From positions 64,001-128,000 of the forward strand of contig JBBRLI010000008.1 of NCBI GenBank assembly GCA_038231455.1: a stretch of DNA of 64,000 bases, written 5' to 3'. The stretch is from Vulcanimicrobiales bacterium (GTDB lineage: Bacteria; Vulcanimicrobiota; Vulcanimicrobiia; Vulcanimicrobiales; Vulcanimicrobiaceae). Positions 3,609 to 54,334 of this stretch are shown here, one piece after another (within the stretch, counting starts at the first letter, position 1; each line of letters starts with the position of its first letter). Both the position numbers and the translations under genes were made by a program. The notes under the pieces are model-generated. The model had not been told where the DNA came from. It ran no database searches and saw nothing but the letters and a program-made list of their open reading frames with translations.

Positions 3609-3791
3609 GTGGCTACGATGGATCCGAGCGCGGTTTATGAGGTCGGAAACGATCAGGTTCCGGAAGTCTACCGCGATTTTTTCAACAACGCCGACTGGAC
3701 CGCACACCGCTTCACGGTGTATGGCAGCTGGGTATTTTTCGTTGTCGCAGTCGTCGCTCACATTTTTGTGTGGGCCTGGCGTCCGTGGTAG
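3609..3791 (+). CDS. pufB: Light-harvesting antenna beta polypeptide
   Basis: GGAGG RBS, then GTG 3609 (alternative ATG 3618). 'FFNNADWTAH...AVVAHIFVWAWRPW' has the BChl-binding His and the C-terminal W-R-P-W. Hidden at the end of track ORF 2838..3791. Confidence 0.93.
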   Translation: MATMDPSAVYEVGNDQVPEVYRDFFNNADWTAHRFTVYGSWVFFVVAVVAHIFVWAWRPW

Positions 3792-3806
3792 CGGGAGGAT
3801 AAGCAT

Positions 3807-3992
3807 ATGATCGCACGTCGACCGTATAACTTCCGCGCAACCCTGGGGGCATACGTGCTCGCCGGAGTCGTTGTCGCCTTTTTAATCCACTTCATAGTAC
3901 TCTCGTCACCGAAGTACAACTGGATTTTCCCGCAAAATGGGATGACGACCGCGGGATCGACTCAAGTCAATCCGGCACCGGGCGCTAAGTAG
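3807..3992 (+). CDS. pufA: Light-harvesting antenna alpha polypeptide
   Basis: 'VVAFLIHFIVLSSPKYNW' is the LH alpha signature; GGAGG RBS. Confidence 0.95.
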   Translation: MIARRPYNFRATLGAYVLAGVVVAFLIHFIVLSSPKYNWIFPQNGMTTAGSTQVNPAPGAK

Positions 3993-4026
3993 CACCTGAT
4001 TCCTTACCCTCCGTGGTCTGAGCGTG

Positions 4027-4076
4027 GCGGATGCGTCCGTACGATTGTCGAGATGACGATCGTCCGGACGAACCGC
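4027..4076 (+). other. Intercistronic RNA stem-loop between pufA and pufL
   Basis: gcgg..cgtccg.acgattgtc-gagat-gacgatcgt.cggacg..ccgc pairs into a long hairpin with no U-tract. Confidence 0.7.
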
Positions 4077-4089
4077 ATGGAGAATCCCG

Positions 4090-4917
4090 ATGCTTGAGTT
4101 CGAAGCCGTCTATCGTAAACCCGGAAACACGCTCTTTCGGCACCTTTTAGGCACCGATCCATTTGATTGGTGGGCCGGCCGCTATTATGTGGGCCTCTGG
4201 GGCGTCGTCTCGATGCTCTTCACGCTCATCGGCGTTGCGGTACTTTTCACCGCCGTCGGACAGTATGGCGACTGGGATCTCTGGCGCGCGAACGTGCATG
4301 CGCCGCTTCGCACCTACGGCCTTGGCTTCGCACCGTTCCTTGATGGCGGCGCTTGGGCAGTCGTGGTTATTTGTGCGACCGGAGCGTTTGTCTCGTGGCT
4401 GCTGCGCGAAATCGATATCTGCCGCAAGCTTGAGATGGGCTATCACGTCCCGCTCATGTTTGGCTTTGCAATTTCCGCCTGGGTAACGCTGCAGATCATC
4501 CGTCCTCTATGGATGGGTTGCTGGTGTGAGGGATTCGATCTCTCGTTCACCGGCCACTTAACGTGGGTCAGCAACACCGGCTTCCGCTATCAAAACTTTT
4601 ATCTCAATCCGTTCCACGCGCTCGGCGTCACCGGTTTCTTCTTAACGGCCATGGTGCTCGCGATGCACGGCAGCGCGATTCTGGGCACGTACAACACCTC
4701 GAAAAATCCGGTGCAAGAAGAAGCCAACGTCGATAACTTTTGGCGCGACTATATCGGATACTCGATCGGCGAGTACGGCATTCACTGGCTCGGGTTCTGG
4801 CTTGCGATCTTTACGCTCGTCGTCTCGGACCTCTGCATCCTAACCTCCGGCACGATCTTCTACGACTGGGTCGAGTTCTGGCAGTTCCAGCACCTCCCGG
4901 CCTTCTGGCTTCACTAG
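4090..4917 (+). CDS. pufL: Type-II photosynthetic reaction centre L subunit
   Basis: DPFDWW..YYVG, REIDICRKLEMGYHVP, HLTWVSN, NPFH, MHGS, GYSIG..GIH: all His ligands present. Confidence 0.98.
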   Translation: MLEFEAVYRKPGNTLFRHLLGTDPFDWWAGRYYVGLWGVVSMLFTLIGVAVLFTAVGQYGDWDLWRANVHAPLRTYGLGFAPFLDGGAWAVVVICATGAFVSWLLREIDICRKLEMGYHVPLMFGFAISAWVTLQIIRPLWMGCWCEGFDLSFTGHLTWVSNTGFRYQNFYLNPFHALGVTGFFLTAMVLAMHGSAILGTYNTSKNPVQEEANVDNFWRDYIGYSIGEYGIHWLGFWLAIFTLVVSDLCILTSGTIFYDWVEFWQFQHLPAFWLH

Positions 4918-4930: not shown

Positions 4931-5935
4931 ATGGCAACCGTCATCACTCGTCCGGTCATCGAGATGCCGCCGGTGCAGCATCCCGACCCGAGCCCGCTCG
5001 ATCACAACGATTTACTCGGCGTCCGCATCGGCGAACCGTTCCGCGTCCCGTTCTTAAAACGGTTTGGCGTTGACACGCAACTCGGAACGCTGTGGCTCGG
5101 TACGTGGGGCATTCTCTCGGTGATGCTTTTCGTCGCGGGACTCGGTGTGCAGTTCCTCGCCGGCGTGACCGCGATGAACGGCGACATTCTTTCCTACCTG
5201 CACTATTTTGCCAACATTCAGCTGCTGCCGCCGGATGGTCTCGGACCCGCGAAGAGCCTCTCGGCCGGCGGGTTCTGGCAGATCAACGTGTTGCTGTGGG
5301 CGGGATCCGTTCTCTGCTGGGCTGGCCGCTGTTACGAGCGCCTCATGCGCTACCAGTGGCGCCCGTATCTCTTCTTCGCGTGGCTCTCGGCGATTCTGCT
5401 GACGGCCACGATCTGGGTCTTCCGTCCGCTGCTCATGGGCACGTGGGCCGAAGCTCCGGCGATGGGCCTCAACGGCGATCTCGACTGGGCGCAAAACTTC
5501 AGCGTCCTCTGGGGCAACCTGTATTACAACCCCTGGCACATGCTCGCGATCTTCTTCCTGTTCGGATCGACGATGCTCTGGGGTATGCACGGCGCAACGA
5601 TTCTTGCAACGTCGGCTGAGGGCAGCCATCACGAAGTCGCCGAGATCAAAGACATGCACTCGGGCTCGCACAAGTCGATGCTCTTCTGGCGCTGGGTAAT
5701 GGGCTTCAATGCGAACCCCAAAACGATTCACGATTGGATCTGGTGGTTCTCCGTTGGTGTGGTTGTCAGCTCGGCGATCGGCATCATCACGACCGGCACG
5801 TTCGTCAATGATTGGTACGTCTGGGGTGTCGACCACGGCATCGTTGCACAGTACGGCGATATGACGCGCGATGCGGTCAATCAACGGCCGGTTCCGATGG
5901 ATGTCAACGTCATCACGGGCATGCCGCGGCCTTAG
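4931..5935 (+). CDS. pufM: Type-II photosynthetic reaction centre M subunit
   Basis: GNLYYNPWHM, MHGATILA, FWRWVMGFNA, TIHDW, GTFVNDWYVW. Confidence 0.98.
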   Translation: MATVITRPVIEMPPVQHPDPSPLDHNDLLGVRIGEPFRVPFLKRFGVDTQLGTLWLGTWGILSVMLFVAGLGVQFLAGVTAMNGDILSYLHYFANIQLLPPDGLGPAKSLSAGGFWQINVLLWAGSVLCWAGRCYERLMRYQWRPYLFFAWLSAILLTATIWVFRPLLMGTWAEAPAMGLNGDLDWAQNFSVLWGNLYYNPWHMLAIFFLFGSTMLWGMHGATILATSAEGSHHEVAEIKDMHSGSHKSMLFWRWVMGFNANPKTIHDWIWWFSVGVVVSSAIGIITTGTFVNDWYVWGVDHGIVAQYGDMTRDAVNQRPVPMDVNVITGMPRP

Positions 5936-5947: not shown

Positions 5948-6880
5948 ATGAATATGAAACGTTTGCTCGGTCCGCTCGTCATCGTCTGCACGCTTGCCCT
6001 CGCGGGCATCGCACAGCCGCTGCTCGATACGGCGCGCGCCGCAAGTCCGGATAAACCGATTACGGGCAATAATAGCCCGCTCGGTGTCGGGCACTTCGAT
6101 CGTAATCCGGCGGCAGCCGAAAAAGGCTACGGACCGGTCGACCAAACCGTGCCGATGGACTTCTCAACCCAGAATGCGAACGTGCCGAAGAACTACGTTC
6201 CGGGCAAACTCTACAACGTACAAGTGCTCAAAAAGTACACGTACGCAACGCTTTTGAACCAAATGAACTACTACACGCAGTCGCTCGGCGTGCAGTGCAC
6301 CTACTGCCACAACGTGCAGAACTTCGCGTACGATACGGGCACGAAAAAGATCGCTCGCACGATGCAAATCATGTCGAACGAAGTCGCCTCAGGCTGGGTC
6401 GATCCGGTCAAACACGACTACCCCAATTACAGCGTGAGCGGGGCCGTCGGCTGCGTCACCTGCCACCGCGGCGCACCGCGCATGGGCGTGAAGTGGAACA
6501 TCGTCCCCGTCGCCTATCTGGACTACAAGGCAAAGACGACAAAGCAAGCCGGCTACGTTGTGAACTCGATGTACTCTGCGGCAAAGTCGCTTGGCGTGAA
6601 CTGCCTGTTCTGCCACAATACGGCGGACTTCGTCTCGCTGCAGTACTACCCGACGAACAAAATCGCGCACCGCATGTGGGCGATGGTCGACAAAATCAAT
6701 CACGAATATTTGCCAGCAAATGTTAAGGCTGTCACCTGCTATACGTGTCACCAGGGTGCGAAATGGCCCCAGGCGCTCGTGACAGCGGGACTCGATCAAA
6801 CGCCGGTGGAAGCGCATGCATCTCACCCGGAAGTTCACGAGAATCCCGGTGCTCATCTCGCGTCTGGAGCAGCACACTGA
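5948..6880 (+). CDS. pufC: Reaction-centre-associated tetraheme cytochrome c
   Basis: Four CxxCH motifs (CTYCH, CVTCH, CLFCH, CYTCH), N-terminal signal/anchor, directly after pufM. Confidence 0.93.
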   Translation: MNMKRLLGPLVIVCTLALAGIAQPLLDTARAASPDKPITGNNSPLGVGHFDRNPAAAEKGYGPVDQTVPMDFSTQNANVPKNYVPGKLYNVQVLKKYTYATLLNQMNYYTQSLGVQCTYCHNVQNFAYDTGTKKIARTMQIMSNEVASGWVDPVKHDYPNYSVSGAVGCVTCHRGAPRMGVKWNIVPVAYLDYKAKTTKQAGYVVNSMYSAAKSLGVNCLFCHNTADFVSLQYYPTNKIAHRMWAMVDKINHEYLPANVKAVTCYTCHQGAKWPQALVTAGLDQTPVEAHASHPEVHENPGAHLASGAAH

Positions 6881-7561
6881 TTGGACGTATTTTGGAGCCT
6901 ACCCAATGTTGGCGAACTCCGCGGCTTACATGAACCGCTCGCGGAGCTGTTCGTAAGCCAAGGTCAGTCGCGTCGGTTTGAATCCGACGCGTCGATCTCG
7001 GATCCCGACACCCGGCCCGCGCGCACGTTCACGTGCACCTCGGGCACCCTCAAAGTCACCAAGCTCTTAGCGAGCGGCCGTGAGATCCTCATAACGATCT
7101 TACAGGGCGGCTCGCTTTGGAGTGACCGCGCCATTCTCAATGGCTACTGGAAAGACGTCTTCATCGAAGCGATGGAGCCGGCCGAGATCGTCTCGGTCGA
7201 TAACGACGTCTTCGAAAAAATGGTCCGCGCCCGCCCTGAGCTGGTCGCGGATTTCATGTTGAACATTTCCGGCCAGGTCTCCGACGCACTGACCCTGCTC
7301 GATGACTTCCGCGGCCGCGATGTTGCCTCACGCCTCGCTCGCGTGCTCGTGAAATTCTCCAAGCAGTACGGCGTGCAGACCGAGTCCGGCGTGCGCATCG
7401 ACTTGCCGGTAACCCACCAGGACCTCGCCAACATGATCGGGACCGCCCGCGAGACCGTCTCGCGCAACATGGCCCGCTTCCGGCAACAGGGCCTCGTCCG
7501 CGACGGCCAGCAGTCGCTGGAAATCACCAACCTCAGCAGTCTCGAACAACTGATCGCCTAA
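6881..7561 (+). CDS. CRP/FNR-family transcriptional regulator
   Basis: C-terminal HTH 'VTHQDLANMIGTARETVSR'. The TTG start abuts the pufC stop. Confidence 0.92.
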   Translation: MDVFWSLPNVGELRGLHEPLAELFVSQGQSRRFESDASISDPDTRPARTFTCTSGTLKVTKLLASGREILITILQGGSLWSDRAILNGYWKDVFIEAMEPAEIVSVDNDVFEKMVRARPELVADFMLNISGQVSDALTLLDDFRGRDVASRLARVLVKFSKQYGVQTESGVRIDLPVTHQDLANMIGTARETVSRNMARFRQQGLVRDGQQSLEITNLSSLEQLIA

Positions 7562-7633: not shown

Positions 7634-7649
7634 GGTGACGACTATCACC
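7634..7649 (+). promoter_or_regulatory. CRP-like box GGTGA-cgacta-TCACC upstream of bchF
   Basis: Centre 7641.5; -10-like TACGAT at 7671-7676. Confidence 0.8.
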
Positions 7650-7685: not shown

Positions 7686-8159
7686 ATGCCGCTCACCAGT
7701 ATTGAAGAAGTCCGTGCTCGGCGCAAGGCAAGCGTGTGGACCAAGATCCACCCCATCTTTGCGCTCGGACAACTTCTCGCGTTTTTTGTTAGCGTCGGCC
7801 TCCTGGTCGCCTATTTCTTTGGGCGTGTCTCCTTTGCCGTCGTTCACGACGCGGTCATGACCAAGATCGGCCTGATGGTCGGGGCGGTCATCACCGGCGC
7901 CCTTTGGGAAAAAGACGTTTTCGGCTCGTACTGGTTTGCCGCCGAGTTTTTGGTTGAAGATGTCATGACGGTCAACGTCTTCATCTTGCAAATCGCCTAC
8001 GTGCTCATGGCCTACACGCACCCGGAGAACCTGGGTGTGATTCTCTGGGTCCTGGGCCTGGCGTACTTCGTCTATGTCGGCAACGTCGCGCAGTACATCG
8101 TGCGCACCGCCAACATGGGCAAGAAGCCGAACCCCGCCGCTTTGCAGATCGCTGCATGA
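7686..8159 (+). CDS. bchF: 3-vinyl bacteriochlorophyllide hydratase
   Basis: 'SVWT...Q...TGALWEKDVFG.YWFA.EF..EDV' family motif. Confidence 0.93.
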   Translation: MPLTSIEEVRARRKASVWTKIHPIFALGQLLAFFVSVGLLVAYFFGRVSFAVVHDAVMTKIGLMVGAVITGALWEKDVFGSYWFAAEFLVEDVMTVNVFILQIAYVLMAYTHPENLGVILWVLGLAYFVYVGNVAQYIVRTANMGKKPNPAALQIAA

Positions 8160-9121
8160 ACGGCGACCGCGCCGCGCGCGCCGTCGTCTTTGCAGAAGCT
8201 GGCCGCTTGGATCTTCGCGCGGTCACCCTGCGCGACTGCGCGCCCGATGAGGTGATCGTCGAGACGCGCTATTCCTCGATCTCTGCCGGCACCGAGCGCG
8301 TGCTGCTCGATGGCAAACTGCCGCCGATCCCGCACCTGGGCTATCCGCTTGTGCCGGGCTACGAAGCGGCGGGCGTCGTTACGCACTGCGGCGATGATGT
8401 CACCGAAGTCCACGTCGGCGATGAAGTCTTTGTCGGCGGCAGCATGTGCTACACCGATGTTGGCGCATTTTTCGGCGGCCAGTCCTCGCGGCTGATCAAG
8501 AAGGCCGCACAAGTTATTCCGCTGCACGGGATTCCGCTGGCGCATGCGCCGCTGCTCGCACTCGCGGCGACCTCGCTGCACGGCGTTCGGCGGGGCGGCG
8601 ACCTTGCTGGCAAATCGGTTGCCATCGTCGGCATGGGCGCGATCGGTCAGTTCGCTGCGCGCTTCGTTGCGACGATGGAGCCGGGCATGCTCTTCGAGGC
8701 CGACAAAAATCCGCAACGCCTCGGCCGCATCCCCGGTGCTCAAAGCCTTGACGTCAACGTGCAGACGCTGGCGGAAGCTGCGCCTGGTGGCGTCGATGTG
8801 ATTTTCGAGGGTACGGGCCACGGTCCGAATCTCGCCAATTGTGCAAAGGCCCTCAAGCCGGGCGGCACGATCGTCTTGCTGTCGTATTACGACACGCTCG
8901 AGACGCCGTTCATGGATCTCTTTGTCAAAGAAGCGACGCTCGTGACCGCTAAGGAATGGTCGCATGTCGACCTGCTCGGCGCGCGCGATTTGATTGCGAA
9001 CGGTGACGTCTCCGTCGCCGACCTCGCGGAAACGCTGTACCCCGTAGAACGCTACCAAGCGGCCTACGATGCAGCATTCGGAGACCCCTCAACCGTAAAG
9101 GTGATTCTGCAATGGGCGTAA
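8156..9121 (+). CDS. bchC: 3-hydroxyethyl bacteriochlorophyllide a dehydrogenase
   Basis: MDR fold 'ISAGTE..GYPLVPGYE', 'LLALAAT', between bchF and bchX. Confidence 0.9.
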   Translation: MNGDRAARAVVFAEAGRLDLRAVTLRDCAPDEVIVETRYSSISAGTERVLLDGKLPPIPHLGYPLVPGYEAAGVVTHCGDDVTEVHVGDEVFVGGSMCYTDVGAFFGGQSSRLIKKAAQVIPLHGIPLAHAPLLALAATSLHGVRRGGDLAGKSVAIVGMGAIGQFAARFVATMEPGMLFEADKNPQRLGRIPGAQSLDVNVQTLAEAAPGGVDVIFEGTGHGPNLANCAKALKPGGTIVLLSYYDTLETPFMDLFVKEATLVTAKEWSHVDLLGARDLIANGDVSVADLAETLYPVERYQAAYDAAFGDPSTVKVILQWA

Positions 9122-10122
9122 GCAAAAATTCGACAGTCGCGGTGTATGGCAAAGGCGGCGCGGGGAAATCGTTCCTCACCTCCATGACGGCCAAGGCACT
9201 GACCGCGCGCGACAAACGCGTGTTGCAGATGGGCTGCGATCCCAAGCACGACTCGGTCGTGACGCACTTCGGCGGCGCGCTGATTCCCACGGTGCTCGGC
9301 ACGTGGGCGCAGTACGAAGCCGAAGGTAAAGCAGAAGAGCTCGCACCCGAACACATCATCTTTAAAGGCGGCGGCGTGTACTGCATCGAGCTCGGTGGAC
9401 CCGAGTCGGCGCGCGGTTGCGGCGGTCGCGGAATTACCTTCGGTTTCCAACTACTCGAGAAGTGGGGACTCTCGGAGTGGAACTTCGATTACATGCTGCT
9501 CGACTTCTTAGGTGACGTCGTCTGCGGCGGTTTCGGGACGCCGATCGCGCGTTCGATGGCCGACAAACTCATCATCGTCTGCAGCAACGAAGGCCAGTCG
9601 ATGTACGCTGCCAACAACATCGCCTCGGCCGTGCGCTACTTCGCCGATCAAGGCGGAAAGACGCGTTGCCTCGGCCTTGTCGTGAACAAAGACGACGGCT
9701 CGGGTAAAGCGGCAAAGATGGCCGAGTGGCTCGGAATTCCGGTCCTCGCGCACATGCCGCTCATCGATCAAGATAAAGTTCTTGTCGACGGCGTGCCGCA
9801 TCAGTCGATTCAAGACGCAGTCGCAAAAGTGATCACGGCAATCGACGAAGCGCCGACGTTCAATCCGAATAAAGTCGACTTCGTGCAATTCATGATGCAT
9901 CTCTCGGGCAACGCTGCGGAGATGGACGGGACCGCCGTCACGTCGGATGAACTCTGGAGCCTTCCCGAAATTATCAAGATGCCGGAAATGGCCGGCATTC
10001 CGAACGGCGGCGCAGCGGATCATCGCTACCTCGAAGCCGAGGGTGATGCAGACAAAGTGTTGATCCCGACCATCGTCAGCGTCGGCGGCGGCAACGTGCC
10101 CGCAGCCGCCTGGGAGAAGTAG
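9112..10122 (+). CDS. bchX: Chlorophyllide a reductase Fe protein
   Basis: [42 protein letters not shown]. Confidence 0.95.
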   Translation: MGVSKNSTVAVYGKGGAGKSFLTSMTAKALTARDKRVLQMGCDPKHDSVVTHFGGALIPTVLGTWAQYEAEGKAEELAPEHIIFKGGGVYCIELGGPESARGCGGRGITFGFQLLEKWGLSEWNFDYMLLDFLGDVVCGGFGTPIARSMADKLIIVCSNEGQSMYAANNIASAVRYFADQGGKTRCLGLVVNKDDGSGKAAKMAEWLGIPVLAHMPLIDQDKVLVDGVPHQSIQDAVAKVITAIDEAPTFNPNKVDFVQFMMHLSGNAAEMDGTAVTSDELWSLPEIIKMPEMAGIPNGGAADHRYLEAEGDADKVLIPTIVSVGGGNVPAAAWEK

Positions 10123-13075: not shown

Positions 13076-13882
13076 TTGGTTCTCTTTGCCGCGACACGCC
13101 TGCGTGTGGGTGCGCGACGTTTGCGTGCACTCGCGCACGGCGATGCCGCTTCGGTGCGCGAATTCGTTCAGAATGATTCGGCACTCCGGCTTGCCGAAGC
13201 GCGCCGTGACGCGCGATCGGACCTCGAAGCACTTTACGCAGCGGGGGCGCGCGTGGTGACGATTCGTGATTGCGCCTACCCCGCCGGTTTGCTCGATCTT
13301 GCCGACCCCCCGGCGTTCTTATGCGTACGCGGCGCGTTGCCCGCGCGCGGGATCGCGGTTGTCGGAACACGCCGTCCGACGGACGCCGCACGCGTCTACA
13401 CGGAGAGGCTTGCGCGAGAGCTTAGGATGCCGATCGTGAGCGGTCTTGCGCTTGGGATCGATGCCGCCGCGCACCGTGGAGCGCTTGCCTCGGGCACGCC
13501 AACCATCGCGTATGTCGCCACCGGAATCGGGCAAACGTATCCACCCGAACACGCCGATCTCGCCGCCGAAATCGTCTCCGCCGGCGGAGCGATCGCAAGC
13601 GAGTTCTTACCCACGGCACGCCCGACGGCTTGGACATTCGTTCGGCGCGACCGGTTGCAGGCCGCGCATGCGCTGGCCACCGTGCTCGTCCAGAGCGAAC
13701 GTGACGGCGGCGCGATGCATACAATGGCAAGCGCCGAGCGCCTAAAGCGCAATCGTTTTGCGCTTTTGTCGAATGGAGATGCCGCATTTGCGGGGAACGC
13801 AGCATCGATCGCTCACGGCGCGACCCCGCTCTCCGATGATCCGTCCCATGCCGCTCGCGCGATCGCGCAGACTACGCACTAG
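13076..13882 (+). CDS. dprA: DNA-processing protein DprA/Smf (compact)
   Basis: 'YPAGL.DL.DPP..L.VRG', 'IAVVGTR', 'VSGLALGIDAAAH'. Confidence 0.85.
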   Translation: MVLFAATRLRVGARRLRALAHGDAASVREFVQNDSALRLAEARRDARSDLEALYAAGARVVTIRDCAYPAGLLDLADPPAFLCVRGALPARGIAVVGTRRPTDAARVYTERLARELRMPIVSGLALGIDAAAHRGALASGTPTIAYVATGIGQTYPPEHADLAAEIVSAGGAIASEFLPTARPTAWTFVRRDRLQAAHALATVLVQSERDGGAMHTMASAERLKRNRFALLSNGDAAFAGNAASIAHGATPLSDDPSHAARAIAQTTH

Positions 13883-37345: not shown

Positions 37346-37352
37346 GAACAAC

Positions 37353-41743: not shown

Positions 41744-41759
41744 GGTGATAAACGTCACC
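41744..41759 (-). promoter_or_regulatory. CRP-like box upstream of bchL (GGTGA-cgttta-TCACC on the minus strand)
   Basis: Centre 41751.5; -10-like TACGGT at 41721-41716. Confidence 0.8.
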
Positions 41760-41814
41760 CAGGCGAAGTCCACGCCTCGATACCCCACACATCACGCTCG
41801 AATGGAGCCACTTC

Positions 41815-45471: not shown

Positions 45472-46464
<993 letters not shown>

Positions 46465-46610: not shown

Positions 46611-49600
46611 TTAATCCCCGGCGGAACCCGAGAGTTGACGACGGTAGGTCGTGAGTTCCACATCGGCGTCGAGCTCGTTGAGTTTGTCTTTGAGGGCTTG
46701 CTCGAGGTCGGCATCGGCCCACATGCCACGCCGCTGGGTATCGAGCAGAATGTTGCCGAGATCGCGCGTTTTGTGGACGTTGGCATCCGAGATGCGGTCC
46801 CACTCGGAGAGCGTGACTTCGACGGTGCGTTTCCACAGTTCGGGCGAGATCGTATTGCCGAGCGCGGCTTCGGTGGAACGCATCGCCTTAAAGATGTCGC
46901 CGAATTCCATGACGCCGGAATAGCCGTGTTCCATCATCTTGTCGCGCCACGCTTGCGAGTGGAAGCGCGTGAGCACGCCGTTGACGACGATGTTGCGGAA
47001 GTTCTTGACTTTGGGATCGCGACGTGTGAGGTCGCTGACGACGATCATCGTATCCTCGTGTCCCATCGTGCGTTTGGCCGCGCCGAACGCCGAGGTGAAC
47101 GAGGCGAACATGTCTTCCTTGACCGGTCCGCCAGCCGCCATCTGGACGAGCGGCTGTTGGATAACCTCCACGGTCTCCACAAGATAGCGTTGAATGTCTG
47201 CGGCCGGTTTGATGAGGATGCTCGCAAACTCGGGGATATAGGCGTTGCTATTGTCGCTCATCCAGGCTGCACCGATGTCGTTGAAATCGGTGAAGTTGCC
47301 GGTGTCGAGCATCGCGCCGACCTGACCCATGAATGCATCTTCACCCATGCCGAAGCAGCGGGCTTTCGCAAGCTCCGGATCCATGCCGTTTGCGATCATG
47401 TGGTCGGTATGCTTCTTGACGAAGTTCCACTCGTACGGTTCGTCGGCGTTTGATGCAAGAACCGCGGCATCGTGGATCAACCGAATCGCCCCGGGGAACG
47501 TATTTTTGAAAACGGTCGACGTGTTGGCGAGGATGTCGATGCGCGGGCGACCGAGTTCGTCGAGAGAAATCAGCTCGACGCGTTCGGCGCGGTTGAAGCG
47601 GTCTTTCTGGACGCGTACGCCCATAAGATCGAGCGCCTGCGCGATGCCGACGCCGTCGCTTTCGAGGACTTCCGAGCCCCAGAGGACGACGCCGACGGTT
47701 GCCGGATAGTGTCCGCGCTCGGCGACGGCCGCTTCGAGAATTTGCTCGACGGTGCGGCGTGCTTTGCGGCAGGCAGCTTCCCGCGGCAGCATACGGACAT
47801 CGGTCGAGGCCATGTTGCGGCCGGTCGGGAGCACGTTCCAATTGCCGACCGGTTCGCCGCCCGCTGAGGGCTCGAGGTACTTGCCGTCAAGGGCCGTGAG
47901 CAGGCCTTTGCGTTCGCCATCGCCGACGCGACCGAGCTCCGCATAGAGCGTGCGCGCGCGTTCGATGAACGTCGTGAGCTCACCGAGTTCGTACGGGTTT
48001 TTCGCAAGCGTATGTCCGGCGATCGGACGCGTGCTCAAGATGCCGACAATCGCCGCTTGACCGACTTTGCCGCTGGGACGCAGCACTTCGGCCGAAACGA
48101 TTTCTTTGCCGGCTTCTTTAATCTCATCGAGGATTTCGTGGTTGTAGAGACCGTCTGCCGTGCGGCCGTGTTGATCGGCCATCAGTTTGTCGTACGGGAT
48201 GCCGTAGCAGCCCGCGATCAAGCGATAGAAGTCCACGTCCGAGAATTCGAGGCAAGCGTAGAACGTCGAGAGCTGATCTTCGGGTGAGAGGTTGCGGCCG
48301 AAGACGTGCTGACCCGCGGGCGCAAATTCGCCTTCGAGCGAGACGAGTTCGTCGTGGACGCGCGCGACGTACTTGCGCTGTTCGTCTTCGTTTGCCCAAC
48401 GCACGTCGATACCGCCGCGTTCGTCCGGAACGCGGGCCGGCGGAAGAAGCGGCTGTTGTCCCGCAGCTTCCGTCCGAATACCGCTGCGCTCGACAACTTC
48501 GACGACTTCCGAGGCGATGTCCGAGCGTTTCTCGACGTCGCTGGAGTTCGTATTGTAGTAGTCGTGCACGAGGCGATGCAGGTTACGCAAATCTTCGCTG
48601 CCGTCGACAGAGACGAGCGGCGGGCAGAGGTGCGAGAGAATCGTTGCATACGAACGGCGCCGCGCGATCGAGGCTTCGACCGGATCGACGACGTTGAAGA
48701 TGTACGCGTGCGGCGTCGAGTCGACTAAGAACTCCGGATAGTCGCCCGCAGCAGGGCACCACTCTTTGCCTTTCGCCCATTCGACGAGTCCGTGCGTGCC
48801 GACGTGGACGATCGCATCGGCGTTGAAGCGGCGCGTAGCGTAGCGATACGATGCGAGCAGCCACGGCGAAGGCGGTGCGCCTTTGTCGTGGATGGCGCTA
48901 AGGTCTTCCATGCCCTGCATGTCTTGCAGCAGCACCAGAATGTTGCCGAAGCGCAGACCTTTGATTGGAATCGTCGCCGGCGGTTGGCCCCACACGTCGT
49001 AAAAGTACGATTCGAACTTCGTCGGAAGATCGTGCACCCAGTCGCGGATCTCCGCGCTCGAGACAGCGCCGACGGTGTGATACCCGGCGTACATGTCTTG
49101 CAGTTTTTTGGAGATTTCAAGATCCGTCGCGTCGATATCGCCCGTGCGGTAGCCGTTCTCTTGCAGCGTCTCGAGCATCGTACGAATGGAGCCGGCGATA
49201 TCGAGGAAGAGCGCGACGCCGATGTTCCCAGGTCCCGGCGGGAAGTTGTAGATAAACGCCGCGATCTTCTTTTCGTCATTTTTGAGGTGGCGCAGCTTGA
49301 GCCAACGGGTCGAAATCTCAGCGAGGTTTTCGACGCGATCGGGGATCGGTTCGAGCGCACTAATATCGGCGTTTGTTGCTTCGCGCGAGCAGATCGGCGG
49401 CATCGGTTGAATGCCTTCGGTCTCGGGGGTGACGATGTTGCCGATGTATTCGAGCGATGCGACGCCGAATTTCGATGCCGCAAGATCGGCGCGCGACATC
49501 GCGGCGTTTACGGGTGAGGTGTAGACGCGCGGATCGCCGAGATCGTGAATGAGATCGATCGACGGCTCGGGTGCGCCCGCGAACATCGAACCCGCAAGAT

Positions 49601-50579
49601 AGAGCGGAACGTTGTGATAGACGGCGTTGACCAGCGGTTGCTGCGTTTTCGTCGCGAGCAAATGTTTACGCGAAACGATGTGCGCGTTGAACACCGCGGT
49701 CATCGAGGTGATAACGCCGAGGCCGCGCTTCTCCCACGCTTCGATTGCGGCGTTGAGCACGGGATGGTTCCACTCAACGAGGAAGAGATCGTGCGTAATG
49801 AAGCCGATGCGATCCCAGGGCTTCTTGCCGTACGTTTTTTCAAAATACGGTTCGTACCACGCGAGATACTCTTCCGGTGTTTGGAAGAGCCCCTTGTGTG
49901 CGGGGTGGTAGATGCCTTCGTTCTCGACCTTGGCGGGGAGCGGAACGACGCCTTTGTAGGCGTTGTTCATGAAGTTCTGCATCAGGTACAAGAACATGTT
50001 TTCCACGTTCTCGACGCTGCGGTTATTCCAGTAACCGATCATGACGAGATTTTTGAAGACCGGCTTCTTGAGAAGCTTGGCCATGAGCGGGGCCGCACCG
50101 ACCATCTTCTGCATCCCGAGGAAACCTTGGCGCGCTTCCCAGAGCTCGTCGATGACTTCGTTCTTTGCTTTTGCCTGATAGCGTTTGATCGCCATCGACA
50201 TCTCGCGCATTGGGTTGGACTTGTTCATGTCGAACTCGAAGCCCAGCGACTTGAACATCATGTTCTGCAGGCGCGGATCGGGAATGTCGTACCACAGGAA
50301 TTTGACCTTGTTCAATTCCCCGGCGCGGTCCATCTCGACCACCAGCTGGGCCAGGCGCTCGACCGTATCGTGCGTCATCGCCTGCCAGCCGACGAAGATG
50401 TCGGCACCCTTGATCGACTCCCGCAGGCGCCCGAGGGCGGCGGGGTCGTTGAAGTCGGCCGCACCATAGTGCTCTAGCTCCCACGGCTGACCCGTCTTCT
50501 CGCGCAGATTGTGAAAGGCGAGACGCATAGCATTCGCGCGCTCGTCCGGGGCCCATGAGGAATAGCCGACAACCTTCAT
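46611..50579 (-). CDS. bchH: Magnesium chelatase subunit H (CobN/BchH family)
   Basis: 1322 aa; YNFPP..GN.G.A..LD, HVGTHG..EW, E..IARRR..A, LPTGRN, LGRPRID. Photosynthetic context and the shared upstream box favour BchH over CobN. Confidence 0.85.
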   Translation of the reverse strand: MKVVGYSSWAPDERANAMRLAFHNLREKTGQPWELEHYGAADFNDPAALGRLRESIKGADIFVGWQAMTHDTVERLAQLVVEMDRAGELNKVKFLWYDIPDPRLQNMMFKSLGFEFDMNKSNPMREMSMAIKRYQAKAKNEVIDELWEARQGFLGMQKMVGAAPLMAKLLKKPVFKNLVMIGYWNNRSVENVENMFLYLMQNFMNNAYKGVVPLPAKVENEGIYHPAHKGLFQTPEEYLAWYEPYFEKTYGKKPWDRIGFITHDLFLVEWNHPVLNAAIEAWEKRGLGVITSMTAVFNAHIVSRKHLLATKTQQPLVNAVYHNVPLYLAGSMFAGAPEPSIDLIHDLGDPRVYTSPVNAAMSRADLAASKFGVASLEYIGNIVTPETEGIQPMPPICSREATNADISALEPIPDRVENLAEISTRWLKLRHLKNDEKKIAAFIYNFPPGPGNIGVALFLDIAGSIRTMLETLQENGYRTGDIDATDLEISKKLQDMYAGYHTVGAVSSAEIRDWVHDLPTKFESYFYDVWGQPPATIPIKGLRFGNILVLLQDMQGMEDLSAIHDKGAPPSPWLLASYRYATRRFNADAIVHVGTHGLVEWAKGKEWCPAAGDYPEFLVDSTPHAYIFNVVDPVEASIARRRSYATILSHLCPPLVSVDGSEDLRNLHRLVHDYYNTNSSDVEKRSDIASEVVEVVERSGIRTEAAGQQPLLPPARVPDERGGIDVRWANEDEQRKYVARVHDELVSLEGEFAPAGQHVFGRNLSPEDQLSTFYACLEFSDVDFYRLIAGCYGIPYDKLMADQHGRTADGLYNHEILDEIKEAGKEIVSAEVLRPSGKVGQAAIVGILSTRPIAGHTLAKNPYELGELTTFIERARTLYAELGRVGDGERKGLLTALDGKYLEPSAGGEPVGNWNVLPTGRNMASTDVRMLPREAACRKARRTVEQILEAAVAERGHYPATVGVVLWGSEVLESDGVGIAQALDLMGVRVQKDRFNRAERVELISLDELGRPRIDILANTSTVFKNTFPGAIRLIHDAAVLASNADEPYEWNFVKKHTDHMIANGMDPELAKARCFGMGEDAFMGQVGAMLDTGNFTDFNDIGAAWMSDNSNAYIPEFASILIKPAADIQRYLVETVEVIQQPLVQMAAGGPVKEDMFASFTSAFGAAKRTMGHEDTMIVVSDLTRRDPKVKNFRNIVVNGVLTRFHSQAWRDKMMEHGYSGVMEFGDIFKAMRSTEAALGNTISPELWKRTVEVTLSEWDRISDANVHKTRDLGNILLDTQRRGMWADADLEQALKDKLNELDADVELTTYRRQLSGSAGD

Positions 50580-50613: not shown

Positions 50614-50629
50614 GGTGATAGCTATCACC
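50614..50629 (-). promoter_or_regulatory. Perfect palindromic CRP-like box GGTGATAGCTATCACC upstream of bchH
   Basis: Centre 50621.5; -10-like TAGCCT at 50591-50586. Confidence 0.82.
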
Positions 50630-50781: not shown

Positions 50782-51180
50782 GTGCCGTTCGTTCGTATCG
50801 ATGTTGCTGAGGGAAAATCCGCTGAGGAGCTTACCGCGATTGGTGACGGCGTTCATTCCGCGCTGATCGAAGCGATCGACATTCCCAAAGACGATCGTTT
50901 CCAAGTGATCAACGTGGTACCCGCAGCGCAGCTGATCTACGATCGTGCGTATTTCGAGATCAATCGCAGCGATGCAACGGTGTTCGTTCAGATTACGCTG
51001 CGGCCCGGACGCACCGAGGATCAGAAGCGCAAACTCTATCATCTCATCGCAACGCAGCTCTGGCGCAAAGCCAAAGTGCGTGCGGAAGATGTGTTTATTA
51101 CGCTTGTGGAGATTCCGGGTGAGAACTGGTCCTTTGGTGGCGGCATCGCACAGTATGCGCCGTCGGTCAAGTCCGAGTAG
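50782..51180 (+). CDS. Tautomerase-family protein
   Basis: GAGGAG RBS, GTG-Pro1; 'DRFQ', 'GRT..QK..LY', 'ENWSFG.G'. Confidence 0.88.
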   Translation: MPFVRIDVAEGKSAEELTAIGDGVHSALIEAIDIPKDDRFQVINVVPAAQLIYDRAYFEINRSDATVFVQITLRPGRTEDQKRKLYHLIATQLWRKAKVRAEDVFITLVEIPGENWSFGGGIAQYAPSVKSE

Positions 51181-51889
51181 GCCCACCGTTTTCGCGCGCG
51201 TGCCGCTTTGCTTGAAAGTAATAATCCGCTAGTCGAAATCCCGCGCGCTCGAGCGCGCTGCGATCGCGACCTTCAGGTGTTTCGGTTGCCGCGCACACGA
51301 GCCGTCCGCCGGCTTCGAGTTGATCCGCGCGTTTAGCGAGGATCGCCGCGCCGTGTCCGCGGCCGCGTTGCGCGGGATACACGAAGGTGCGCACTTCCGT
51401 CCAGTGACCGTCGAGCGGCTCGCTCATGACCACACCGACGACGTCATCGCCCCGCTGTGCGAGCAAAACTTCGGGCGTGGAAAAACCGCGGCCGTATTCT
51501 TTTGCTATTTCATTGATCGAGATCCGGTCCAGCGCCGAGGGTGGTCGCAGCACCACATCGCTCCGGTCGATCGTCGACTCGGCATGATGGATGAACGCCG
51601 CGCCCGTCGGCGCGAAGGCGAGATTCAGATCGCTGGCCCCGCGACGCGCGGCATGGTCGCCCCCATAGAACCAAATGCTACGCGCCCCGAGCGCCGCAAA
51701 CGCTTCGGCCAGACGCCGGGCCGGATCCTCGGAGTCGGCGATGTCGAATCGCACGATACAGTCCGAGGCAAAGATGCTGCCATCGCTCTTGAAGGCGACG
51801 CCGACCGCGCGGCCATCGTCGCGCAGCGCGATTCCGCGAGCGCTTTCGCGAACCATCCGGGCGAGTGAGAGAACCGGTAAACTATCCAT
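51167..51889 (-). CDS. GNAT-family acetyltransferase
   Basis: 'V.PAQRGRGHG', 'LERAGF'. Confidence 0.7.
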   Translation of the reverse strand: MDSLPVLSLARMVRESARGIALRDDGRAVGVAFKSDGSIFASDCIVRFDIADSEDPARRLAEAFAALGARSIWFYGGDHAARRGASDLNLAFAPTGAAFIHHAESTIDRSDVVLRPPSALDRISINEIAKEYGRGFSTPEVLLAQRGDDVVGVVMSEPLDGHWTEVRTFVYPAQRGRGHGAAILAKRADQLEAGGRLVCAATETPEGRDRSALERAGFRLADYYFQAKRHARENGGPTRT

Positions 51890-51991
51890 GCTGCGATCTC
51901 GAGTCCGGGCAAAAAAAAGCGAGTCGATATCTCACGACTCGCATTTCGAAAAAGTGTTACCCCGGCCTGCGCCGGGCTAACACGATCGACC

Positions 51992-52363
51992 TTAAGCGGA
52001 GGCTTTTGCCTTGCGGACGGTCTTCTTGCCCGAAGCCTTGCGGCGCGGCGACGCTTTACGCGCAGCCTTCTTCACGCCTTTTTTGCGACCGGCGGTCTTT
52101 TTACGACCGGCAGTCTTTTTGCGTGCCGTTACTTTACGGGCGGTTTTCTTGCGACCAGCGGTTTTCTTTTTGGCTGTTTTCTTGCGGGTCGTCTTTTTGG
52201 CGCTCGTCGATTTGCGGGTTGAGGTCTTCTTACGAGCGGTCTTCTTGGCGGCCGTCTTCTTGCGCGGAGCCGCTTTGCGGGCCGTGCTCTTCTTACGGCT
52301 GGTGGACTTGCGCGTCGAGGTTTTCTTGGCCGCGCTCTTCTTGGCGGTACGTTTCACTGCCAT
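51992..52363 (-). CDS. Histone H1-like Lys/Arg/Ala/Thr-rich protein
   Basis: Repeating (R/K)KKTA / RKSTS pentamers over 123 aa. Confidence 0.75.
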   Translation of the reverse strand: MAVKRTAKKSAAKKTSTRKSTSRKKSTARKAAPRKKTAAKKTARKKTSTRKSTSAKKTTRKKTAKKKTAGRKKTARKVTARKKTAGRKKTAGRKKGVKKAARKASPRRKASGKKTVRKAKASA

Positions 52364-52447
52364 TGTTTTGGTAGCTCAACTTTCTATCCGCGTCGCTATG
52401 GAGGCGGATGGAAACCGGCATGTGCCGGGGATGTTACCAATGTTATA

Positions 52448-54334
52448 TCACCCGGAGGAAATTTTCGCAACAACGTCGGTTATTGCGTAGTACCGGCCGC
52501 GCGAATTTTCGGCCAATTCTCGCATCAACGGATAGGCTTCGAACTCGTCCAAATTCACAAATGTCATCGCCGCGCGACCCGCGATCGCGCCCGCAATCGC
52601 CCGGCATTGTTCGCCCGCAACGGCGACGAGTTGGCGCGGATCGCCGTTTTTGAGCGCTGCGGAAATCTCGTTTTCGGCACCGAGCGGAACGTTCGCGCGG
52701 CCGTCGGAGAAGATTGCGACGTCGACTTGCGCGCCGGAATTCGCTCGTAAAAAGCGTTCCGTGATCCGGCGCACGTGTTCGAGCGCACCCGCAAGCGGGG
52801 TCAGCGCTTTGCCCTCGCCGGCTTCTAAATCGAGCAGACGCGAAGCGACGAGATCGATATTTCGGCCCGTGTTCTCATCAACGACGACCTCGGCGCTCGG
52901 CCCCCAACACGATACCAGCGCCGCGCGTTCGCGCTCCGTATAGATGGGTCGCAAGAGTTCGCGGCACGCCGCGCGGACGAGCTCCGCAGATTTTTTGGTG
53001 GAGAGCGATGCATCCACGACGAGTACCGTCAGCCGCGGCGGGACGGCCGCATCGACTTGTTCGCGCGGCTCGGCCGGCATTGCTGCGGCGCGCGCGACAC
53101 TGCGATCGACCAGCGTAGCGGCGATGTCGAGCCGGCCGTTCGCGAGCGGCTGCGTCGCGATCGTTTGTCCCTCGATTGCGGACTGCGGTCGTTTTTTCAA
53201 ACTCGCGCGCTGCGTTAACTCGGGCGAAACAATCGTCGTTGGACCCTGCGGCGGCGGCTCGTTCTCGGCATCGCTCTCGCCTTCGCCCATCGTTTGATCG
53301 AGTGCCGCTTCGATCGCTGCATCTTCGGCCATGTGCTCCGAGAGCGCTTCGACTTTGAGTCGCGAGCGGCGCAAGCGCGCAGCAAGCGGCAGGACGCGCG
53401 CGACGTCCTCGCGCGTTACTTCTTTGCGGTTCTCCCAGGCCGCATACGCCGCGGCCGCTTCCAGCGTGACGATCTCCGTGCGGTGCGAATCGATGCCGAG
53501 GCGCGCGATCGTCTCGATCGCCGTGCGCTCTGCGTCTTCGTTGATGCGCACGTTCGGCAAGAGCTTGATCGCGCGCGCCAGGCGCGTGCGCAGCGCTTTT
53601 GTTTTGCTTTCGTAAAGCGCGGCAAAACCGCGTGGGTCGCGGGCGAACGCCGCGTTGCGGCGATAAATCTCGACGCGTTCGTCATAGCTGCCGGCCGCGC
53701 GAATGAAGACGCGCAGGCCGATACGGTCCGTGATCTGCGGACGCAGTTCGCCTTCTTCGGGATTCATCGTGCCGATGAGCGTGAAGCGCGAGGGGTAGTC
53801 GATCGCGTGCTGACCGCGCTTGACGTGCACGACGCCTTGCGCTGCGGCATCGAGCAGCGCATCGACCGCAACGTCCGCGAGCAAGTTGATTTCATCAACG
53901 TAGAGCACGTTGCGATTCGCGCCTGCGAGGAGACCAGGACGGAAACCGACGGCATTCTTCTCGAGCGCCGCGCGCAAGTCGATCGCACCCACGAGATCGT
54001 CGAGTTGGACGCTTGCGGGAAGTTCGACGATCTCGCCGCGCGTTTTACGCGTCTTCGGCCGTTCGCCGCGTTCGATCTGCGCCGCGCATGCCTCGCACAG
54101 ATTGGCGCCGTCGGGGTCGCAGCCGTACGCGCACGTCGCGCGTTCGAGGACCGGCAAGAGTTCTGCGGCGCTGCGAACGAGCGTCGTCTTGCCCGTTCCT
54201 TTGGGGCCGGAGAAGAGCACGCCCCCGACGCGCGGATTGATCGCGGCAAGGGTGAGAGCGAGTTTGGGTTCGTCTTGACCGACGATTGCAACGAATGGGA
54301 ACGGGATGTAAGCGGCTCGACTGGATTGCGGCAT
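52448..54334 (-). CDS. bchD: Magnesium chelatase AAA+ / vWA subunit (BchD/ChlD-type with an intact BchI-like AAA module)
   Basis: FPF.AIVGQ, GPKGTGKT, LYVDEINLL, GTMNPEEGELRPQ, acidic/Pro linker, vWA DASLS and SDGRAN. Confidence 0.78.
   Translation of the reverse strand: MPQSSRAAYIPFPFVAIVGQDEPKLALTLAAINPRVGGVLFSGPKGTGKTTLVRSAAELLPVLERATCAYGCDPDGANLCEACAAQIERGERPKTRKTRGEIVELPASVQLDDLVGAIDLRAALEKNAVGFRPGLLAGANRNVLYVDEINLLADVAVDALLDAAAQGVVHVKRGQHAIDYPSRFTLIGTMNPEEGELRPQITDRIGLRVFIRAAGSYDERVEIYRRNAAFARDPRGFAALYESKTKALRTRLARAIKLLPNVRINEDAERTAIETIARLGIDSHRTEIVTLEAAAAYAAWENRKEVTREDVARVLPLAARLRRSRLKVEALSEHMAEDAAIEAALDQTMGEGESDAENEPPPQGPTTIVSPELTQRASLKKRPQSAIEGQTIATQPLANGRLDIAATLVDRSVARAAAMPAEPREQVDAAVPPRLTVLVVDASLSTKKSAELVRAACRELLRPIYTERERAALVSCWGPSAEVVVDENTGRNIDLVASRLLDLEAGEGKALTPLAGALEHVRRITERFLRANSGAQVDVAIFSDGRANVPLGAENEISAALKNGDPRQLVAVAGEQCRAIAGAIAGRAAMTFVNLDEFEAYPLMRELAENSRGRYYAITDVVAKISSG

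Follow-up and report, generated by a model that had tools for sequence, protein, structure and literature searches.

Photosynthesis gene modules in the window

We analyzed a stretch of 64,000 nucleotides from a Vulcanimicrobiales genome (hereafter the window; C8:64001-128000 of a 142,930-base contig, in a genome of 3.71 Mb, 106 contigs, and 93.67% completeness). It carries a photosynthesis gene cluster (PGC) and, in front of several operons of that cluster, two conserved palindromes that may be the control sites of two linked regulator genes of the CRP family, crp1 and crp2. Genes were called with an NCBIfam scan of all 145 open reading frames (ORFs) of at least 140 amino acids, with Pfam scans, and by direct translation. 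An earlier note on this DNA had described a dispersed gene set, and the NCBIfam and Pfam matches confirmed it: pufBALMC, bchFCXYZ, hemL, bchPGBN, bchL, bchH, and a chelatase gene form separate units with non-photosynthetic genes between them, bchF abuts bchC, and bchL lies 15.9 kb from bchN. The span of approximately 51 kb given in that note had to be enlarged. A crtI-like gene and crtB lie before the window and acsF and bchM after it, so the cluster measures approximately 73 kb, over which the photosynthesis genes form approximately 7 modules. The genes are the following (window coordinates unless a contig is named):

C8:61097-63161, 0.8-2.9 kb before the window start: crtI-like gene and crtB
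3618-3791, + strand: pufB, light-harvesting 1 (LH1) beta, one His in the membrane helix (NF040862, E 2.5e-10; PF00556)
3807-3992, + strand: pufA, LH1 alpha, one His in the membrane helix (PF00556)
4090-4917, + strand: pufL, reaction center (RC) L subunit, separate gene (TIGR01157)
4931-5935, + strand: pufM, RC M subunit, separate gene (TIGR01115)
5948-6880, + strand: pufC, tetraheme cytochrome, 4 CxxCH motifs, N-terminal hydrophobic segment by hydropathy (NF040706, PF02276)
6881-7561, + strand: crp1, CRP/FNR-family regulator (PF13545, PF00325, PF00027)
7686-8159, + strand: bchF (TIGR02020)
8156-9121, + strand: bchC (TIGR01202)
9112-10122, + strand: bchX (TIGR02016)
10145-11461, + strand: bchY (TIGR02015)
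11371-13047, + strand: bchZ (TIGR02014)
14311-15612, + strand: hemL, a gene of the backbone between the modules
19468-20763, - strand: bchP (TIGR02023)
20767-21972, - strand: bchG (NF005742)
21740-23284, - strand: bchB (TIGR01278)
23281-24972, - strand: bchN (TIGR01279)
40829-41788, - strand: bchL (TIGR01281, 359.6 bits, above the cut-off)
46611-50579, - strand: bchH, large Mg-chelatase subunit (TIGR02025, E 1e-173)
52448-54424, - strand: fused bchI/bchD-type chelatase, 658 amino acids, AAA+/vWA (TIGR02442, TIGR02030, TIGR02031)
C8:131950-133867, 4-6 kb beyond the window end: acsF and bchM
C8:134191-135357 (locus L112 6191-7357), beside bchM: crp2

With these genes, the cluster is predicted to encode the full bacteriochlorophyll (BChl) a pathway (BchH, a fused BchI/D, BchM, AcsF, BchLNB, BchXYZ, BchF, BchC, BchG, and BchP). 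The encoded photosystem would combine LH1 (PufBA) with a type II RC that has separate L and M subunits, a tetraheme cytochrome, and no H subunit. The chelatase gene that the earlier note had called bchD is indeed present, but it is a BchI/BchD-type fusion rather than a plain bchD. Its product has Walker A (GPKGTGKT), Walker B (LYVDE), and DASLS (DxSxS) motifs and a weak VWA_2 match (19.6 bits, below the Pfam cut-off of 27), and it is the sole BchI-like locus in the genome. Most of the RC and Bch proteins scored below the NCBIfam equivalog cut-offs (261 versus 364 for PufM, 580 versus 829 for BchH), which fits a divergent lineage.

The earlier note had also reported that puhA, pucC, ppsR, and crt genes are missing. 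For the first 3 this was borne out genome-wide, whereas the crt genes lie just upstream of the window. The puhA model TIGR01150 gave only a 25-bit PRC-barrel match, of a kind also seen in Deinococcus, and PF03967 gave none; the best PpsR match in the genome was a PAS domain (31 bits versus a cut-off of 275); and the PucC family (PF03209) had no member genome-wide. The remaining pathway genes that the note had left to the rest of the genome are the acsF, bchM, crtI-like, and crtB genes listed above, bchE being found nowhere in the genome. Nor did a puhA/ppsR cluster turn up elsewhere in it. Because the genome is 94% complete, these absences are not proven. The MFS gene beside bchL was considered as a PucC/LhaA analogue and rejected, as it is of the MFS_3/EntS type and PF03209 is absent genome-wide.

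Two palindromes precede the puf and bch operons

A dyad search over the promoter regions identified the palindrome GGTGA-N6-TCACC, which we call the bch box. Its core, GTGA-N6-TCAC, occurs at 4 sites in the window where 0.66 are expected, a count reached in none of 100 shuffles, and all 4 sites are full 16-mers located directly upstream of bchF, bchN, bchL, and bchH. A second palindrome, GTA-N8-TAC (the puf box), precedes pufB. In its extended form, GTAG-N6-CTAC, it has 2 sites in the window against 0.09 expected, again reached in 0 of 100 shuffles. The sites, together with a related one elsewhere in the genome, are as follows:

3507-3520: puf box GTAGCAGTGGCTAC, GTA-N8-TAC palindrome, 97 nt before the pufB ATG
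3544-3549: TAACCT hexamer of the puf promoter, box-to-hexamer spacing 22 nt (16-mer frame)
7634-7649: bch box GGTGACGACTATCACC, 36 nt before the bchF ATG, with TACGAT 21 nt downstream
24747-24762: bch box GGTGACCACTATCACC, upstream of bchN, directly after the anti-sigma-kinase-like ORF
41744-41759: bch box GGTGATAAACGTCACC, upstream of bchL, in the divergent region between bchL and the cmk-like gene
50614-50629: bch box GGTGATAGCTATCACC, 34 nt before the bchH ATG, with a TAGCCT hexamer that ends 6 nt before the ATG
C4:21776-21791 (locus L278 2000-2015): near-perfect bch-type box CGTGATAGCTATCACC, between a hemC/hemD fusion and hemB

A fifth full bch box is located upstream of bchM. The 3.7-Mb genome contains 7 full 16-mers in all, and the PGC accounts for 5 of them. 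When the promoters of bchF, bchN, bchL, bchH, and bchM were compared across 6 genomes, the box was present at all 28 that were covered, with fixed half-sites and a variable spacer. Each of the 28 also has an nAnnnT hexamer 21-22 nt downstream of the box, which in 22 reads TAnnnT. The bchH promoter box was likewise found in 7/7 further phototrophs, including members of a group with divergent PufM (described below), so that the same geometry recurs in 13/13 genomes. The puf box is as constant: GTA-N8-TAC lies approximately 100 nt upstream of pufB in 6/6 genomes and in 7/7 further puf loci, its left half reading GTAA in the 5 divergent-group genomes. When 67 genes were scanned without bias in the 6 genomes, the scan recovered conserved boxes only at the puf and bchF/N/L/H/M promoters. 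The collinear regions of non-phototrophs contain no full box, and other genomic matches of either box fall mostly inside long ORFs. The hemB box occurs in 8/13 phototrophs (this genome and 7/12 others, at the same position) and, with one mismatch, in 2 more, and in 0/18 non-phototrophs. The second GTAG-N6-CTAC site of the window (46235-46248) lies in the 5' part of a papain-family peptidase ORF.

In the class II activator layout, known from CRP, FNR, and NtcA promoters, a box near -41.5 stands in place of the -35 element; the E. coli CRP box reads TGTGA-N6-TCACA. Taking the conserved nAnnnT hexamer as the -10 element places the center of the bch box at -41.5 to -42.5, and the puf box would have the same position relative to its predicted start, in each of the phototrophs compared. 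At bchH, where the TAGCCT hexamer ends 6 nt before the ATG, this arrangement suggests a leaderless transcript. The true starts of bchN (near 24,68x, by promoter alignment) and of bchL probably lie below their bch boxes.

Two CRP-family genes accompany phototrophy

The TTG start of crp1 abuts the pufC stop. Its product has the recognition helix ARETVSR and a single Cys, and therefore no FNR-type cluster. In a panel of 32 genomes, crp1 orthologues (60-99% identity) were present in 12/12 phototrophs and 0/20 non-phototrophs, in which the best paralogues reach at most 28% identity. crp2 was present in 11/12 phototrophs and 0/20 non-phototrophs; the sole miss, G001, has a contig that ends at bchM. 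In alignments to solved structures, the crp2 helix, NRVTVTR, stands against TRVTVTR in NtcA chains, and that of crp1 against SRETVNK in GlxR.

The crp2 protein further has an N-terminal extension of approximately 190 residues before its cyclic nucleoside monophosphate (cNMP)-like and helix-turn-helix domains. The extension has no Pfam match at E<=1 and is a possible sensor domain. In the same panel, CRP-family matches to crp1 (E<=1e-10) number 4-8 per phototroph and 0-2 per non-phototroph, with none in 16/20 of the latter. This CRP-family expansion looks tied to phototrophy.

A putative activator pair for puf and bch transcription

The likeness of the two helices to those of NtcA and GlxR, taken together with the NtcA and CRP types of the two boxes, would assign crp2 to puf and crp1 to bch. 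We consider it slightly better than an even guess that two activators of the CRP family, both restricted to phototrophs, coordinate transcription of the cluster, with binding and activation predicted from sequence. In this model, crp2 (NtcA-type helix RVTVTR, encoded beside bchM) would bind GTA-N8-TAC and switch on pufBALMC-crp1. In turn, crp1 (CRP-type helix RETVSR) would bind GGTGA-N6-TCACC near -41.5 of the bchF, bchN, bchL, bchH, and bchM promoters and, in most phototrophs, would act on hemB as well. The pair would thus do, by activation, the job that PpsR/CrtJ does in purple bacteria. For the complete two-step cascade, from crp2 to the puf operon with crp1 and from there to five bch operons and mostly hemB, some of the transcripts being leaderless, we see even chances. 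NtcA-activated promoters have GTA-N8-TAC centered near -41.5 (PMC3898017).

The palindromes might instead be operators of a repressor, that is, of a PpsR/CrtJ-like analogue blocking RNA polymerase, or of some other regulator, with crp1 and crp2 controlling something else. We regard this as doubtful, though a serious possibility. The boxes overlap the place expected for a -35 element, and a site at approximately -41.5 could suit a repressor too; however, the fixed spacing of 21-22 nt, the -10-like hexamer, and the lack of a recognizable -35 element in 28/28 promoters reproduce the class II activator layout. The 4-8 CRP-family paralogues of each phototroph mean that other candidate regulators exist, but no CRP-family gene other than crp1 and crp2 lies inside the cluster, the presence of these two follows phototrophy (12/12 and 11/12 versus 0/20), and their helices match the two box types. 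The light response of bchM in Vulcanimicrobium alpinum, whose transcripts go up only approximately 2.9-fold (PMC9758169), sits more easily with a repressor or another regulator.

Several further observations count against the activator pair. The pairing of regulator with box is drawn solely from the likeness of the recognition helices, and the best match of crp1 as a whole is NtcA (81 bits) rather than CRP. The -41.5 geometry follows from assigning the nAnnnT hexamer as -10 element, so the start site is a predicted one. The scan of 67 genes found no box at bchID, crtI, hemL, or acsF in the 6 genomes, and control would therefore not be cluster-wide; the hemB box is missing in 3/13 phototrophs. 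Full bch boxes also occur away from these promoters: G003 has one upstream of bchX, G004 one within bchH, and this genome two, at C1:368271 and C17:63833.

A chromosomal backbone common to phototrophs and non-phototrophic relatives

To place the modules in their genomic context, 67 proteins of contig C8 were compared by tblastn with 80-100 kb around pufM in 5 other phototrophs of the family (G001-G004 and G016). The window is collinear with G001 over 53.2 of its 64 kb at 83-91% nucleotide identity. All 6 genomes have the same module order: crtI-crtB, pufBALMC-crp1, bchFCXYZ-dprA-PAS-hemL-pcd, bchPGBN-antisigma, PPIase, abc2a-alkA, abc2b-DPRP, bchL / cmk-like-MFS, bchH, bchID, and acsF-bchM-crp2 / lhr. 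As to coverage, crtI-crtB is not in the G002 region compared, and the G003 and G016 regions end before acsF-bchM.

The cmk-like gene was rejected as specific to the photosynthesis cluster, being present in 18/20 non-phototrophs. Because it is so common there, we compared the matching regions of 3 non-phototrophs of the same family, G058, G074, and G041. These keep many backbone genes in the same order: hemL, the M28 peptidase, blaA, abc2a, abc2b, cmk-like, MFS, and alpha/beta hydrolase genes in all 3, and in G058 also crtI-crtB, pcd, PPIase, the S9 peptidase, alkA, pirin, nhaP, and GNAT240. In contrast, the matching regions contain no puf or bch gene, crp1, dprA-like, PAS, or DPRP gene, and BchL and BchY are absent genome-wide from all 3 (G016 served as positive control). 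G058 and the phototroph G016, which have the same genus label, are collinear at 70-82% identity except for 6 module-sized gaps: at puf-bchFCXYZ, 11.7 kb in G016 correspond to approximately 130 bp in G058, and at bchID, 2 kb correspond to 87 bp.

In a tree of 6 concatenated backbone proteins (1876 columns), G058 is the sister of G016 (100/100) and nested among phototrophs, and G074 and G041 fall together outside the phototroph group. The tree built from 15 PGC proteins (6906 columns) does not conflict with the backbone tree for the 6 phototrophs; in it (G000,G001) and (G002,G016) are fully supported and G003 is unresolved. Hence, we judge it likely that cluster and backbone descended together by vertical inheritance in this clade and that at least one lineage (G058) lost every comparable module, from pufB to bchID, by clean deletions.

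Recent horizontal transfer within the phylum, with a whole 70-90 kb region swapped by homologous recombination (compare Ward 2019), would be an unlikely alternative in our view. It would account for the patchiness of phototrophy: of 151 genomes sampled in the phylum, 11 have PufM, and these 11 belong to a single family. Such a swap predicts that the backbone of G016 should group with other phototrophs, but the opposite was found: it is closest to its non-phototrophic congener G058 (78% identity, 100/100), and the backbone and 15-protein PGC trees agree for the 6 phototrophs. PufM of G016 is nonetheless less similar to that of the window (63%) than its backbone rank predicts. Published opinion is divided too: Ward 2019 (PMC6664022) found organism and phototrophy trees incongruent and favored transfer within the phylum, whereas a 2024 study (PMC11194577) argues for vertical descent with losses. 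Besides the disagreement of Ward 2019, two points weigh against vertical descent with loss. No puf or bch pseudogene relics, which would have spoken against transfer, were found in the compared non-phototroph regions, so the loss is read from tree position only, and the backbone and PGC trees use 9 and 6 genomes, all of them kin. A 24-residue "DPRP" match in a non-phototroph was rejected as a relic because it is the antisense of the overlapping abc2b.

The other features of the region are listed here:

13076-13882, + strand: dprA-like gene after bchZ, absent together with the module in non-phototrophs
13894-14310, + strand: gene for a small PAS protein of 138 amino acids, absent together with the module in non-phototrophs
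24767-25234: anti-sigma-kinase-like ORF (HATPase_c_2), precedes bchN
27211-27474: HicB-like antitoxin ORF
28566-29429: class A beta-lactamase-like gene, far below resistance-family cut-offs, conserved backbone in phototrophs and non-phototrophs
37206-38903, + strand: photolyase/cryptochrome-related gene (DPRP; PF04244)
45472-46464, - strand: papain-family peptidase ORF just downstream of bchH
C8:63236-66388 (window 1-2388 and 0.8 kb before the window): insert between crtB and pufB

The anti-sigma, dprA-like, and PAS genes travel with the modules and are gone from G058 and G074; an anti-sigma homologue stays in G041. The DPRP gene occurs inside the cluster in 7/12 phototrophs, which are all 7 of the group with window-like PufM; the 5 divergent-group genomes lack it, as do 20/20 non-phototrophs. 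We regard it as a candidate light sensor. Since the annotated 5' end overlaps abc2b on the other strand, translation probably starts near residue 30-60. Among the compared regions, only the window and G001 have the papain-family peptidase gene at bchH. The insert between crtB and pufB (4.4 kb) contains two ORFs of unknown family (203 and 294 amino acids), a MarR regulator, and a Fic/DOC gene; it was not found at that place in G001, G003, G004, or G016, in which crtB adjoins pufB. A hidden gene in the 1.2-kb gap before pufB was considered and rejected, and the gap, including an ORF at 2838-3791 in frame with pufB, was treated as non-coding. This ORF has no Pfam match and was equally conserved in all frames by tblastx against G001, and the gap sequence upstream of pufB is absent from G002-G004.

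Host identity and phylogeny of the reaction center

The earlier note had guessed a host from Eremiobacterota/WPS-2, and both RpoB and the PufL/PufM tree support that guess. RpoB, encoded on contig C9, was compared in the genomes behind the closest PufM loci. It is 98, 91, 88, and 83% identical to that of 4 metagenome-assembled genomes (MAGs) titled Vulcanimicrobiota, Ca. Velthaea, or Ca. Lustribacter, and a fifth MAG gave fragments only (84-93%). In a general scan, RpoB matches named outside the phylum did not exceed 75%, and a record with the bare title "bacterium" reached 79%. The 13 closest PufM loci in a species-level genome collection are 69-90% identical to the window protein and have mostly the same 3 names in their titles. 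A profile-guided scan returned 80 PufM loci, of which 6 are of the Eremiobacterota type (63-71%) and the remainder, from Pseudomonadota, Gemmatimonadota, and Myxococcota, reach at most 42%. A motif scan added Roseiflexaceae and the divergent Eremiobacterota group. Altogether, PufM identity is 63-90% within the clade, approximately 54% to the divergent group, and at most 42% outside.

The L and M sequences were placed in one tree of 90 rows (IQ-TREE quick search, LG+C20, support from the Shimodaira-Hasegawa-like approximate likelihood ratio test, SH-aLRT), with the window, 18 Eremiobacterota-type, 6 Roseiflexaceae, and 20 Pseudomonadota/Gemmatimonadota/Myxococcota loci. Left out were L014, L017, and L023 (frameshifted M), L118, L119, L121, and L199 (partial), the divergent-group duplicates, Thiodictyon-type extras, and approximately 57 remaining proteobacterial loci. 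For PufL and PufM alike, the window sequence belongs to a Vulcanimicrobiota/Eremiobacterota clade of 19 rows (SH-aLRT 99 and 100), separate from a Pseudomonadota, Gemmatimonadota, and Myxococcota clade (98 and 89) and from a Roseiflexaceae clade (100 and 100). Both proteins thus lie outside the Proteobacteria and outside the Chloroflexota, the latter represented by Roseiflexaceae only, the two places that the note had named as speaking against its interpretation. A sister relation of Roseiflexaceae to the Eremiobacterota clade is weak (87 and 83), comes with a long-branch warning, and was obtained with no Chloroflexus sampled. In PDB sequence searches, Roseiflexus and purple-bacterial chains scored alike (approximately 250 bits for L), and no Eremiobacterota RC structure was among the matches.

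At the residue level, PufL reads HLTWVSNTGFRYQNFYLNPFH, with F in place of Y162 and Y in place of H168, and PufM reads GDLDW, with D at the H182 position and hence no His ligand. The numbering of L-Y162, L-H168, and M-H182 is that of Rhodobacter sphaeroides. A Kyte-Doolittle hydropathy plot of PufM, a crude measure used here with no transmembrane (TM) predictor, gave 5 hydrophobic segments, none of them in residues 1-50. The sixth, N-terminal M helix predicted for the WPS-2 MAGs of Ward 2019 (PMC6664022) is therefore not evident here, which is a point against assigning the window to that lineage. With this reservation, we conclude with high confidence that the window holds the PGC of a phototrophic member of the Vulcanimicrobiota (Eremiobacterota/WPS-2), in the family of Ca. 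Velthaea and Ca. Lustribacter. That the contig is instead a mis-binned or transferred proteobacterial or Chloroflexota cluster, or a remnant in decay and without function, is highly improbable: near-identical gene sets do occur in MAGs titled Rhodospirillales, Janthinobacterium, Armatimonadota, and Alphaproteobacteria, and many proteins do score under NCBIfam equivalog cut-offs, but no proteobacterial sequence exceeds 42-47% identity to PufL and PufM, which form a separate clade, the interleaved backbone genes are common to non-phototrophic genomes of the same family, all frames are open, promoters and operators are conserved across 13 genomes, and BChl a production is documented for a cultured relative with these sub-clusters (PMC9758169).

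MAGs titled Janthinobacterium, Rhodospirillales, Armatimonadota, and Alphaproteobacteria carry Eremiobacterota-type pufLM (L013, L014, L015, L017, L119, L122, and L211). L013, L015, L122, L211, and L119, a copy of L015, belong inside the Eremiobacterota clade; L014 and L017 are not in the tree. These bins are probably mislabelled. The divergent Eremiobacterota group (L198, L202, L206, L207, L211-L215, and L217, in genomes G050, G110, G131, G135, and G144) is approximately 54% identical to the window in PufM and approximately 55% in PufL. Four of its genomes (G050, G131, G135, and G144) have 2-3 identical pufLM copies and G110 has one, and on one chromosome the L frame is truncated in 2/3 copies (L213 and L217). 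Two paralogues, one BchH/CobN-like (29-30%) and one of crp2 (34-43%), are likewise present in all 5 genomes; where positions are comparable, they lie no more than tens of kb from a puf copy.

Comparison with known photosynthesis gene systems

The earlier note had made novelty depend on the taxonomy of the host, and the host indeed falls in a family for which phototrophy, gene order, the missing H subunit, and the BchID fusion have already been published (Ward 2019, PMC6664022; Yabe 2022, PMC9758169). As one more genome of a published lineage, the cluster by itself changes little, and the results on regulation and evolution matter more. The main text of Ward 2019 makes no mention of regulation, CRP, FNR, PpsR, or transcription, the word "regulator" is absent from that of Yabe 2022, and neither text mentions the two conserved putative control sites or the two linked regulator genes; none of the matches listed in a literature search joined Vulcanimicrobiota names with Crp, Fnr, or NtcA. 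The backbone held in common with non-phototrophic relatives and the absence of the modules from G058 likewise go beyond these two papers. Two operators and two phototroph-specific regulators provide a model that is directly testable in the cultured Vulcanimicrobium alpinum, and the box motif may reveal further regulon members, possibly including a replacement for the H subunit or assembly factors. If true, the model would describe an activator-based counterpart of the PpsR repressor regulon and supply a sequence signature for finding further photosystem genes. The absence of modules from a shared backbone, and a non-phototroph nested among phototrophs, bear on the dispute between transfer (Ward 2019) and descent with loss (PMC11194577).

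Among the nearest published systems are the WPS-2 MAGs of Ward 2019 (PMC6664022). There, the RC was described as a third type II lineage in which puhA is absent and pufC present. The genes were called "somewhat clustered but spread", their order is fairly consistent, and bchC stands between bchF and bchX. In the L subunit, F takes the place of Y162 and a Tyr occupies the H168 position, and the BChl-M site has no His ligand. The window agrees in all of these features: no puhA, pufC present, the order bchF-C-X, L-F162, L-Tyr168, and the missing M-182 His. The two studies differ in that transfer within the phylum was favored there, whereas the trees here favor vertical descent with loss. The cultured V. 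alpinum WC8-2 (Yabe 2022, PMC9758169), which makes BChl a and which we compared by its published description, has the same sub-clusters (pufBALMC, bchFCXYZ, bchNBGP, and bchM-acsF), bchL likewise set apart by non-photosynthetic genes, a BchI-BchD fusion, and acsF without bchE; it has no Mb-scale gaps and belongs to the same deep RC clade. Its RuBisCO-like (form IV) gene between bchNBGP and bchL is absent here, where the sole RuBisCO-family gene of the genome is one large subunit on contig C27. The 4.4-kb insert between crtB and pufB, for its part, distinguishes the genome studied here.

The RCs of Roseiflexus and Chloroflexus (PDB 8iug, 5yq7, and 8ydm) are likewise type II without H subunit, with a tetraheme cytochrome and an LH1-like antenna; their bch genes also lie outside one compact cluster, and the weak sister grouping noted above (SH-aLRT 87 and 83) points in the same direction. 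However, their proteins are only 37-46% identical to those of the window, L and M are fused in Roseiflexus but separate genes here, and their genes are scattered over megabases instead of lying within 73 kb. The purple-bacterial cluster has the same BChl a enzymes, the same pufBALMC order, and a palindromic operator that is common to several bch promoters and coordinates pigment genes, to which the bch box would correspond here. It differs by having puhA, ppsR, pucC, and bchE, none of which was found in this genome, and by keeping bchF with bchNBHLM, whereas bchF is joined to bchCXYZ here. None of the marks of a proteobacterial-type cluster (puhA, ppsR/crtJ, a bchFNBHLM superoperon, or PufLM in the proteobacterial clade) was found.

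The PpsR box is TGT-N12-ACA. In place of the PpsR/CrtJ system, the window has a 16-bp CRP-type palindrome at a predicted position of approximately -41.5, an activator layout, and regulators of the CRP/FNR family. Likeness to NtcA and CRP class II promoters extends to the box sequences, palindromes of 14-16 bp, and a spacing of approximately -41.5 with a putative TAnnnT -10 element. The helix RVTVTR of crp2 is identical to that of cyanobacterial NtcA, and that of crp1 is of the CRP/GlxR type RETVxR. Differences from NtcA, CRP, and FNR are the N-terminal extension of approximately 190 residues in crp2 and a crp1 without the FNR cysteine cluster, and the predicted targets here are the puf and bch operons of a different phylum.

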